Virus record (IMG/VR): IMGVR_UViG_2718218360_000002
Direction: 5' to 3' (one strand)
DNA length: 64,000 bases
From: a virus
Lineage: Duplodnaviria > Heunggongvirae > Uroviricota > Caudoviricetes
Each line of letters starts with the position of its first letter. Within the stretch, counting starts at the first letter, position 1. Made by a program: the position numbers. This document shows positions 51,001-54,000 of this stretch, piece by piece.

Positions 51001-54000
51001 ATTTTTAGCAGAGCCTGAATGCCATAATCACGGCTCCCGGAGTTGGCCGTCAGTGGGTGACACTGGCGGCTTTTTGTTTTCCTTTACTTTCATTTTCTGT
51101 CGGCGGTGACGGAGACATACATCAGATGGAAAAAATCACAACAGGTGTGTCATACACCACGTCAGCGGTAGGGACGGGATACTGGTTACTGCAACTGCTG
51201 GACAAAGTCTCTCCGTCCCAGTGGGTGGCAATAGGTGTACTGGGGAGTCTGCTGTTTGGCCTGCTGACGTATCTGACAAATCTTTATTTCAAGATTAAAG
51301 AAGATAAGCGTAAGGCTGCGAGAGGTGAATAATGTCGCCGTCATTACGCAAGGCTGTTGCAGCTGCTATTGGTGGTGGGGCTGTTGCCATAGCGTCTGTG
51401 CTCATCACTGGTCCAGGTGGTAACGATGGTCTGGAAGGTGTCAGCCACATACCATACAAAGATATCGTTGGCGTATGGACTGTATGTCACGGACACACCG
51501 GAAAAGACATCATGCCCGGTAAAACGTATACCGAAGCAGAATGCAAAGCCCTCCTGAATAAAGACCTTGCCACGGTCGCCAGACAAATAAACCCGTACAT
51601 CAACGTCGATATACCGGAAACAACGCGCGGCGCTCTTTACTCGTTCGTTTACAACGTGGGCGCTGGCAATTTCAGAACATCGACGCTTCTTCGCAAAATA
51701 AACCAGGGCGATATCAAAGGCGCATGTGATCAGCTACGGCGCTGGACATACGCTGGCGGTAAGCAATGGAAAGGGCTGATGACTCGCCGCGAGATTGAGC
51801 GTGAAGTCTGTTTGTGGGGGCAACAATGAGCAGGGTAACCGTTATTATCTCCGCTCTGGTTATCTGCATTATCGCCTGCCTGTCATGGGCTGTTAATCAT
51901 TACCGCGATAACGCCATTACCTACAAAGCGCAACGCGATAAAAAAGCCAGTGAGCTGAAGCTGGCGAACGTGACAATTACTGATATGCAGGTACGCCAGC
52001 GTGATGTCGCTGCACTTGATGCCAGATACTCGAGGGAATTAGCCGATGCGAGAGCTGAAAATGAAACTCTGCGTGCTGATGTTGCCGCTGGTCGTAAGCG
52101 CCTGCGCATCAACGCCAACTGTCCAGGCTCCTTGCGTAAAGCCCCCATCACCTCCGGCGTGGATAATGCAACCGGTCCCCGACTGGCAGAAGCCGCTGAA
52201 CGGGATTATTTCATCCTCAGAGAACGGCTGATGGCAATGCAGAAGCAACTGGAAGGAGCACAGGAATATATCCGTACCCAGTGTATACCGTGATGTTTTG
52301 TTATGAAGGTGTTACTGGTAACGTTAAGGTAATTTAACAAAGAGTCAGTTCCGGACTTTATAGTGTGCTCAGTTCATGGACAAAAACGATTTCTGTGATA
52401 AATATTTTGAATATTATTTACAGGTAAATGGAGTGGGGCGCATGGATAGAAATATTACAATAGAGTATGAAGTATATGCCCGTATTGTATGGGCAGAGAA
52501 GGCAAAAACACGGTAATTCCGTGTGTTGCCATGATACCTGATTGGCAGAATAGTTGTTTGGTTTTGAGTATATAGTCAGCGTTTTTTGTTCAGTAATTGC
52601 CCCCTCAAAAAATAATAAAATAAGGTGATTATTTTTGTTTATTATTTAGTTTTTTTGTGTGTTATTTTATTGTTTTTGCGTGGTTTGTTTTTTATTGTTA
52701 TTTCATTAAGGGAAGGTAAATTCAGGATGGCAGTCTGTAGATAATCGGAGGTCACTTATGCTACATGATCACGTGGCAGAATGTCTGGAGAAAAAAGGAC
52801 TGTACCGGAGAGCAGCTGAACGATGGGCAAAAGTGATGGTACAGCTAAGTGATGACCAGAAAAGAAAAGTGGCGGCACAGAAACGAGCAGAGTGTTTGCG
52901 TAAGGCGCGCCGGACTCCGGTTTCACCGGTGAACCTGACCGAAATAAAACAAGCGGTCAACAGACTACATTCTGAGTTGGGAATGGGATTTGAAGAGCGG
53001 CGGGTATTCCGACGATATAAAGGGACAGGAGAACAGAATACGTCCGGAAACGCGCGGTCAAAAAAATGCTAAAAAATATCTGAGAGAGTTATTGCCTGTT
53101 ACCATAAGAAAAAGCGACTTTAGTGGTCGCTTTTTGTGTCATATATAAGTCGTTTAAGTAAACCTGTCTGAACAGGTGCTCTGGTCGTGTTTGTCTTTGT
53201 TGGGTACAAATTGAGAATATTTTTCATTAATTAATCTTCTTCTGCAGGCTTCAATAACCCACGCTGAAAAATTACCTGAACCTTTCTGGTCAAGAGCGAT
53301 GTTAATTTGTTCAATCATCTGGTTTGGAAATCGGATGTTGCGGGTTGTTGTTCTGCGGGTCCGGTTTTTCGGTGACATTTTCTTTCCTCTGGTGACAAGC
53401 TATATGGCGAGGATTTTACATGGCCGTGCTTCGTACGTTACCGGGCAGAATCAAAACTCTGAATACCCGGCGGGTGAATGTCCTGAAGGGGGAACAGCGT
53501 CGGGTCAGTGGCAGTGCCCGGGTTTCCCTCAAGCGTCGTATCTGGCTGAGGGATGCCGGACAGTGCTGTCTCTGTGGGCGTGTGGTTGACCTTTGTGACA
53601 GTGAACTCGATCACCGCATTGCACTTCAGTTCGGTGGTGGTAATGAGGAGACGAATCTCTGGACGCTCTGTACCGAATGCCATCGCCAGAAGTCAGTCAG
53701 TGAAACGGCGAGTGGTATGCCGGACCCGACGCTGCCGGAGGTGTCCGGAGGTCATGGCAGGGCAGACGATATCATCGGACTGTGACCCGCCCCGGGGGGG
53801 GATCATCCGGCGAAAAAACGATCGCCCCGGACACCGCCCCCCGTCTCATGCAGAGAAAAAATTCCTGTTTCAGGCCAGTTAACATGTTAACTGGCTGCCC
53901 GGGCATTTTTTCGGTTTTTATCTTTATTATTCAGTTTGTTGTGCGAAAAAAATGTTAACTGGCTTTTTCAGCAAATGTTAACCAGGCAGCAGTTAACATT

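Follow-up and report, generated by a model that had tools for sequence, protein, structure and literature searches.

Introduction

[quoted passage not shown] Here we describe a pch gene located at positions 52758..53072 of the virus record IMGVR_UViG_2718218360_000002, a 64,000-nucleotide (nt) stretch of DNA, which we refer to as the window. The described genes to which it is closest are pchA, pchB and pchC of E. coli O157:H7 Sakai. Each of their products activates a ler::lacZ fusion at least 4-fold; with PchA, 9,087 Miller units were measured, compared to 1,577 in the control (PMC5931665). PchA activates the LEE1 promoter without Ler, binds the LEE1 region with or without H-NS and StpA, renders the LEE1 H-NS-DNA complex more sensitive to hydroxyl radicals, and lowers its H-NS occupancy (PMC4764244). 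Furthermore, chromatin immunoprecipitation revealed that PchA and Ler lower H-NS occupancy over the whole LEE and at effector loci, including the nleA-nleM1 region and the nleG clusters (PMC4764244).

The pch genes are reported to have regulated transcription of their own, via LrhA (PMC4456613). Expression of pchA and pchB is LrhA dependent and responds to butyrate/Lrp and to NtrC/sigma-S (PMC4456613, PMC13012123, PMC10714755). At the level of translation, pchA is blocked by a sequence in its own coding region that is complementary to the Shine-Dalgarno sequence (anti-SD), and this block is released by DicF under low oxygen (reviewed in PMC7769764 and PMC7873438). After SOS induction, the collinear pchC gene was upregulated 8-fold, while Sakai-type pchA was not induced (PMC5931665).

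Results

A pch gene with the sequence of pchA

A preliminary description of the window, made from the sequence alone, had placed an open reading frame (ORF) for a 104-amino-acid (aa) regulator of the PerC/Pch type just after the lysis genes of a prophage. Indeed, an ORF of this length with an ATG start was found at that position (52758..53072, + strand; 315-bp coding sequence). It is preceded by the Shine-Dalgarno (SD) sequence GGAGG at 52747-52751, six bases 5' of the ATG. A profile search confirmed the family assignment: the protein scored 149.3 bits (E = 3.8e-44) with Pfam PerC (PF06069), whose curated gathering cutoff is 22.6 bits, and residues 1-89 aligned to positions 1-89 of the 90-position profile, covering the full domain.

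Comparison with Sakai was even more specific. The window protein was identical to PchA (ECs_1091) in 104 of 104 residues, and the coding sequence was identical to pchA in 315 of 315 nt. PchB differs from the window protein by V6L, and PchC by V6L and V58M. When the window copy was compared with the three Sakai genes pchA, pchB and pchC, the coding sequence varied at sites 52773, 52929 and 52940 only. These are nucleotides 16, 172 and 183 of the gene, the only ones by which the group 1 pch alleles are told apart (PMC5931665). At these sites the window carries G, G and C, matching pchA. A 1.2-kb region around pch matched several O157:H7 chromosomes at 100% identity, with "PerC family transcriptional regulator" as their annotation of the gene, and by sequence identity the window is E. 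coli O157:H7 DNA.

The motif quoted in the preliminary description, KKGLYRRAAERWAKVM, corresponds to residues 12-27 of the window protein. It was rightly taken as a family signature, because PerC of enteropathogenic E. coli (EPEC) strain E2348/69 shares the core G-x-YRRAA-x-RWA-x-x-MV, in which G14, Y16-R17-R18-A19-A20, R22-W23-A24 and M27-V28 are invariant between Pch and PerC. The two proteins were 49% identical over the aligned part (tblastn against pMAR2, 47.1%; E = 1e-17). No solved structure was related by sequence to the window protein, and a single-sequence AlphaFold2 model with four helices and a disordered basic tail (predicted local distance difference test score, 51) was too poor to use.

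We conclude that, as judged from these identities, the ORF is the already known and well-characterized virulence regulator, a PchA allele, in its usual slot. It is almost certainly a functional pch copy, carried by a prophage as a moron and encoding a small helical regulator of the PerC family.

The pch cassette has the features of a phage moron

The gene lies between the lysis and packaging genes of the second of two prophages in the window, with holin, endolysin and Rz/Rz1 upstream. The features of this neighborhood are as follows.

51126..51332, + strand: class II (P21 S-type) holin, the first lysis gene (PF04971, E = 2.9e-32; RefSeq annotation of the identical locus)
51332..51829, + strand: endolysin, RrrD-type lysozyme (PF00959, E = 8.3e-46; annotated as lysozyme RrrD)
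51826..52293, + strand: Rz spanin (PF03245, E = 2.1e-46); its last bases are the left edge of the pch cassette
52046-52231, + strand: Rz1-type ORF, 61 aa, embedded in Rz (ORF listing)
52294..52757, + strand: AT-rich tract and pch leader (composition, repeats, identity to the region upstream of Sakai pchA)
52758..53072, + strand: pch, PchA allele, 104 aa (PF06069; identity to Sakai PchA)
53109..53135, both strands: predicted bidirectional intrinsic-terminator hairpin between the convergent pch and ylcI genes (folding)
53154..53378, - strand: YlcI/YnfO (DUF3950), convergent with pch (PF13132, E = 9.7e-20; NF041551)
53420..56295, + strand: HNH endonuclease, small terminase and large terminase, with which the packaging module starts (PF01844, PF03592; RefSeq annotation)
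45882..46703, + strand: Q-type antiterminator, located in the same prophage (annotated in the identical locus and placed on the window by a 100% identical match)

The + strand encodes Q, the lysis genes and pch alike, in a collinear arrangement. Downstream of pch, the hairpin AAAAAGCGAC...GTCGCTTTTT (53109-53135) folded with -14.7 kcal/mol on the + strand (z = -3.45) and with -12.3 kcal/mol on the - strand (z = -3.59). It has A- and T-runs at its borders and U-runs on either side, and is predicted to serve as a bidirectional terminator for pch and ylcI.

The distribution of the cassette was surveyed in 5,426 complete E. coli genomes, using an 857-bp query (52294-53150) and requiring at least 80% of its length to be covered. 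Tract, pch and 3' flank were conserved as a unit in 672 genomes, at 1 to 5 copies per positive genome (median, 3), and identity was at least 99% in 588 of the 687 matching records. Among those listed, the positive genomes were largely O157, O55:H7, O145, O111 and O103. Strains of these types are attaching-and-effacing lineages. In a search of a phage collection, only two short unannotated fragments of the cassette were detected.

In Sakai prophage Sp9, the same flanks, Rz on one side and ylcI-HNH-terminase on the other, enclose no pch. The window is homologous to the Sp9 junction up to 52283 and again from 53244, inside ylcI; the intervening DNA measures approximately 960 bp here versus 465 bp there. 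Presence or absence at a junction, aberrant composition and an own terminator are features of phage morons, and the cassette has all of them. The empty Sp9 junction, together with the conservation of the cassette as a multicopy unit in attaching-and-effacing E. coli, bears out the initial view of pch as cargo of the late region.

We also considered, and regard as somewhat unlikely, that the main role of Pch is not LEE specific. In that case it would act more generally, as a counter-silencer or global regulator carried by phages or plasmids, and in strains with a LEE the activation of the latter would be one consequence of this. PerC-family genes with 31-48% identity are present on plasmids of Salmonella, Klebsiella, Serratia, Citrobacter and Pantoea, and K-12 harbors the PerC homologue yfdN (PMC5931665). 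PchA binds many non-LEE loci covered by H-NS (PMC4764244, PMC4456613), and EPEC PerC is reported to change metabolism and surface antigens (PMC5293775). However, the exact cassette was restricted to the 672 genomes mentioned above, with the attaching-and-effacing bias of those listed. Moreover, group 2 and group 3 Pch proteins barely activate ler (PMC5931665), which argues that LEE activity is a specific property of group 1, the group of the window copy.

An AT-rich tract precedes pch

From the Rz stop codon to the pch ATG (52294-52757), the window contains a 464-bp tract with a GC content of 33.4%, compared to 51.7% in the whole window; in a 113-bp core (52600-52712), the GC content drops to 23%. 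Only 1.4% of the segments of the same size were as AT-rich. Since the others were all located in the effector locus at 19-32 kb, the pch tract is the sole such patch in the second prophage. The AT-richness given in the preliminary description was thus confirmed, while its label "repeat-like" was only marginally, or weakly, true. TRF detected 2.2-2.5 copies of a T-rich 20-21-nt unit at 52632-52682 (scores, 53-58), and a repeat search of the tract found three 20-nt copies with approximately 80% identity in addition to a few short AT-rich inverted matches. The T-tract repeats span 52632-52707 and amount to phased T-tracts in low-complexity DNA.

AT-rich composition, as here with 23-36% GC in a 52% GC context, is a known preference of H-NS. 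Silencing of the tract by H-NS is plausible and would fit its base composition. The high-affinity H-NS motif TCGATAAATT had a single match near the tract, at 52331, with two mismatches.

The chief role of the tract could also be another than silencing by H-NS. It might act as an ordinary activator-dependent promoter region with curved UP-like T-tracts, which recur approximately every 20-21 bp; LrhA is reported as a direct activator of pchA and pchB (PMC4456613). Alternatively, it could contain a small gene or a small RNA (sRNA) of its own. A 46-aa ORF (52376-52516, + strand) matches phrog_2157 (E = 1.2e-36), a PHROG of unknown function. The window, pchA, pchB and pchC copies were compared, and the ORF is intact in each of the four. 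However, 10 of its 11 variable sites were non-synonymous, and thus the ORF evolves like non-coding DNA. With 11 variable sites in 141 nt, compared to 3 in the 315 nt of the pch coding sequence, it is approximately 8 times more variable than pch. A conserved protein was rejected on the basis of this substitution pattern.

A stable hairpin (GGCAA..ACACGG-TAATT-CCGTGT..TTGCC; -16.7 kcal/mol, z = -4.2) is located at 52501-52530, where it overlaps the 46-aa ORF at its stop codon. Since a T-run is present only on the minus strand, it is terminator-like there alone. In the pchB and pchC copies, the hairpin contains two single-nucleotide polymorphisms (SNPs) without covariation. A candidate minus-strand sRNA, which would start at a promoter-like site (52641-52612) and end at the terminator-like hairpin (52524-52508), was dropped because of these SNPs and because promoter-like sites occurred at chance frequency. 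Furthermore, an Rfam search over 50500-54200 with E values up to 1 revealed no RNA family in or near the tract, and pch is mentioned neither in an EHEC sRNA survey paper nor in a recent preprint. The base composition of the tract suits H-NS, and we consider it quite unlikely that one of these other roles is its chief one. A second ORF in the tract (39 aa, 52625-52744) had no family match and was taken as an artifact of the T-rich sequence.

Comparison with pchA, pchB and pchC of Sakai

The window was compared with the three group 1 pch loci of Sakai, which are pchA in Sp4, pchB (ECs_2182) in Sp11 and pchC (ECs_2737) in Sp14. Identities to the window were as follows.

Rz 3' end: pchA 93%, pchB 100%, pchC 100%
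Distal tract: pchA 98.7%, pchB 97.7%, pchC 96.4%
Core of the tract (52600-52712): pchA 97.4%, pchB 70%, pchC 89%
Leader: pchA 100% (45/45), pchB 93.3%, pchC 97.8%

The 3' flank was identical to that of Sakai pchA at 157 of 158 positions. Because the Rz 3' end matches pchB and pchC while the tract and the gene match pchA, the window copy reads as a mosaic of a pchB/pchC-type Rz end and a pchA-type tract and gene. The core with 23% GC was the only part of the tract that strongly diverged between the paralogues (70% in pchB versus 93-100% in the surroundings). The published difference in regulation between pchA and pchB may relate to this divergence, with the core as the candidate site.

In the window, as well as in Sp4, Sp11 and Sp14, the group 1 gene is located in a lambdoid prophage between Rz/Rz1 and the packaging genes. 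The position of Sakai pchA relative to Rz/Rz1 is the same as that of the window gene. In Sp4, however, the segment comprising holin, endolysin, Rz and pchA is inverted with respect to the late operon and bracketed by partial IS629 and ISEc8 elements (37131-44827 of the Sp4 locus), and this inversion may explain the published absence of SOS induction of pchA, pchC being induced. Unlike Sakai pchA, window pch is collinear with Q and the lysis genes, and it resides in a different prophage, arranged in tandem at ompW. In its collinearity it resembles the pchB and pchC loci. These encode the same 104-aa group 1 protein, apart from the one or two residues given above, lie collinear with the late operon in a slot that has Rz/Rz1 on one side and the terminase genes on the other, and are followed by a ylcI-containing 3' flank. 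Homology of Sp11 and Sp14 to the window ends near 53370. Beyond this point, their packaging genes are annotated as a phage DNA packaging protein or small terminase, a large terminase and a head-tail joining protein, while the window module consists of HNH endonuclease and terminase genes.

Predicted control of the window copy

Given that the tract is approximately 98% identical to that of Sakai pchA, transcription of the window gene is probably under pchA-type control (LrhA, butyrate/Lrp, NtrC/sigma-S), exerted from the 464-bp tract. Leader and coding sequence are identical to those of pchA, and for this reason translational control is probably also of the pchA type, with an anti-SD block and relief by DicF, whose gene is present in the same prophage. 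A candidate anti-SD, CUCCG at 52915-52919, pairs with the SD region (-19 kcal/mol). In addition, the collinearity with Q and the lysis genes suggests that, upon prophage induction, the gene is probably also transcribed by read-through from the late promoter. That the collinear pchC is SOS induced and the inverted Sakai pchA is not points in the same direction.

The two prophages of the window and the number of pch copies

An Sp9-like prophage, present with its tail end and an effector locus, occupies the first 32 kb of the window. The features of this locus and of the dicF region in the pch-bearing prophage are as follows.

19819..28871: effector locus of the Sp9-like prophage (genes 100% identical to Sakai or FRIK2455 genes)
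19819-21144, - strand: nleA
26461-26739, - strand: espO1-2
27450-28097, - strand: nleG
28281-28871, + strand: espM1
36470-36658, - strand: dicB, adjoining dicF
36833..36884, - strand: DicF sRNA gene, early region of the pch-bearing prophage (Rfam RF00039, full length, 76.7 bits versus a gathering threshold of 48)

The preliminary description had linked both prophages to the type III secretion regulon. This is supported by the presence of nleA, espO1-2, nleG and espM1 in the first prophage, and by the effect of PchA and Ler on H-NS occupancy at the nleA-nleM1 region and the nleG clusters (PMC4764244). In comparison to Sakai Sp9, the effector locus is without nleH1-2 and without the first 458 nt of nleF (21800-23600); a 112-nt nleF remnant (22732-22843) adjoins an integrase pseudogene and insertion sequence fragments.

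Between the prophages (32156-33457), a 126-bp fragment of the ompW 3' end is followed by the integrase of the second, pch-bearing prophage. This tandem junction was present in 84 of the 5,426 complete E. coli genomes, those listed being mostly cattle O157:H7 isolates. In Sakai, which is without the junction, yciE and the trp operon come directly after Sp9. In at least two of the genomes with this junction, FRIK2455 and SS TX 754-1, the cassette is present four times, compared to three times in typical O157:H7.

Given this extra copy, the window gene could be intact but redundant or silent in the lysogen, a fourth near-identical copy that adds nothing measurable to LEE expression and hitch-hikes on the prophage. 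Consistent with this, the pchA allele of strain PA20 is expressed at a low level (about 8 reads per kilobase per million mapped reads) and is not SOS induced (PMC5931665), and one paper attributes a contribution to optimal LEE expression to PchA and PchB only (PMC13012123). Nevertheless, the paralogous pch coding sequences are far better conserved than the neighboring 46-aa ORF, with the 3 versus 11 variable sites given above, which argues for maintenance of the coding sequence. The tract is likewise intact, as are the SD and the terminator, and LEE1 activity increases with the dose of PchA up to a point (PMC4764244). We consider such redundancy or silence unlikely, and a functional copy remains our conclusion.

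Besides DicF, the pch-bearing prophage encodes AgvB, STnc100 and hok/sok. The STnc100 sRNA gene (48416-48616, + strand; 150 bits) is arranged back to back with the gene of the anti-GcvB sRNA AgvB (48619-48680, - strand; 96.5 bits), and the pair is located in the late region just 5' of a SASA-family esterase gene (48828-50678). The hok/sok locus (sok, 43315-43489) lies further upstream.

Since DicF is reported to activate pchA translation, regulator and target travel on one element. A farther-reaching idea, to which we assign only a low probability, is that in a minority sublineage of O157:H7 the ompW tandem prophage supplies a fourth group 1 pch and that the sRNA activator, its target regulator and the coupling to the late promoter form a self-contained module, which would raise LEE expression or couple it to SOS or low oxygen. 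The tandem location at ompW, which is lineage restricted, the fourth cassette copy, the collinearity with an intact late operon and the co-residence of dicF are modestly new.

Discussion

Recognition of the ORF as pch annotates the window as virulence-regulatory cargo of O157:H7 and accounts for the adjacent effector locus. The finding itself is already known and brings no new biology. As shown in the literature for the identical protein PchA, the window protein would bind the LEE1 (ler) promoter region and other AT-rich virulence loci covered by H-NS. There it would remodel or reduce the H-NS nucleoprotein complex, and as a result ler would be switched on. Acting together, Ler and Pch would next relieve the repression of the type III secretion genes of the LEE and of non-LEE effectors such as nleA, nleG and espM1, which are present in the window.

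Several observations weigh against this interpretation. That the window copy is expressed, we infer from its sequence. A scan for sigma-70 consensus promoters yielded 3 promoter-like sites, compared to 2.9 expected from shuffled sequences, and no H-NS occupancy data for pch loci or their upstream regions were found in literature text and supplements. In a scan of DicF-pch duplex energies, 17 of 100 shuffles scored as well. The LEE lies outside the window, and its presence in the source genome is assumed from the identity to O157:H7. Finally, the group 1 pch genes are partly redundant, and a fourth copy may add little.

Two described systems can be set beside the pch cassette. PerC of EPEC E2348/69, encoded on the pEAF plasmid pMAR2, belongs to the same Pfam family as Pch, and both proteins activate the LEE1/ler promoter (PMC4456613). 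In contrast to Pch, PerC has 89 aa and is plasmid-borne. Its gene is in third place in the perABC operon, which PerA controls, and lacks an AT-rich tract of its own; the protein is without the basic C-terminal tail of Pch. The second system comprises the lambdoid morons at the end of the lysis cassette. Like pch, they are accessory genes between conserved late genes, with aberrant composition and an own terminator, and a given junction is occupied by them in some related phages and empty in others. The differences concern promoter and cargo: the autonomous promoter of pch is known from the literature and was not located by sequence in the window, and pch encodes a regulator of a chromosomal pathogenicity island, whereas other lambdoid morons encode a surface or serum-resistance protein.

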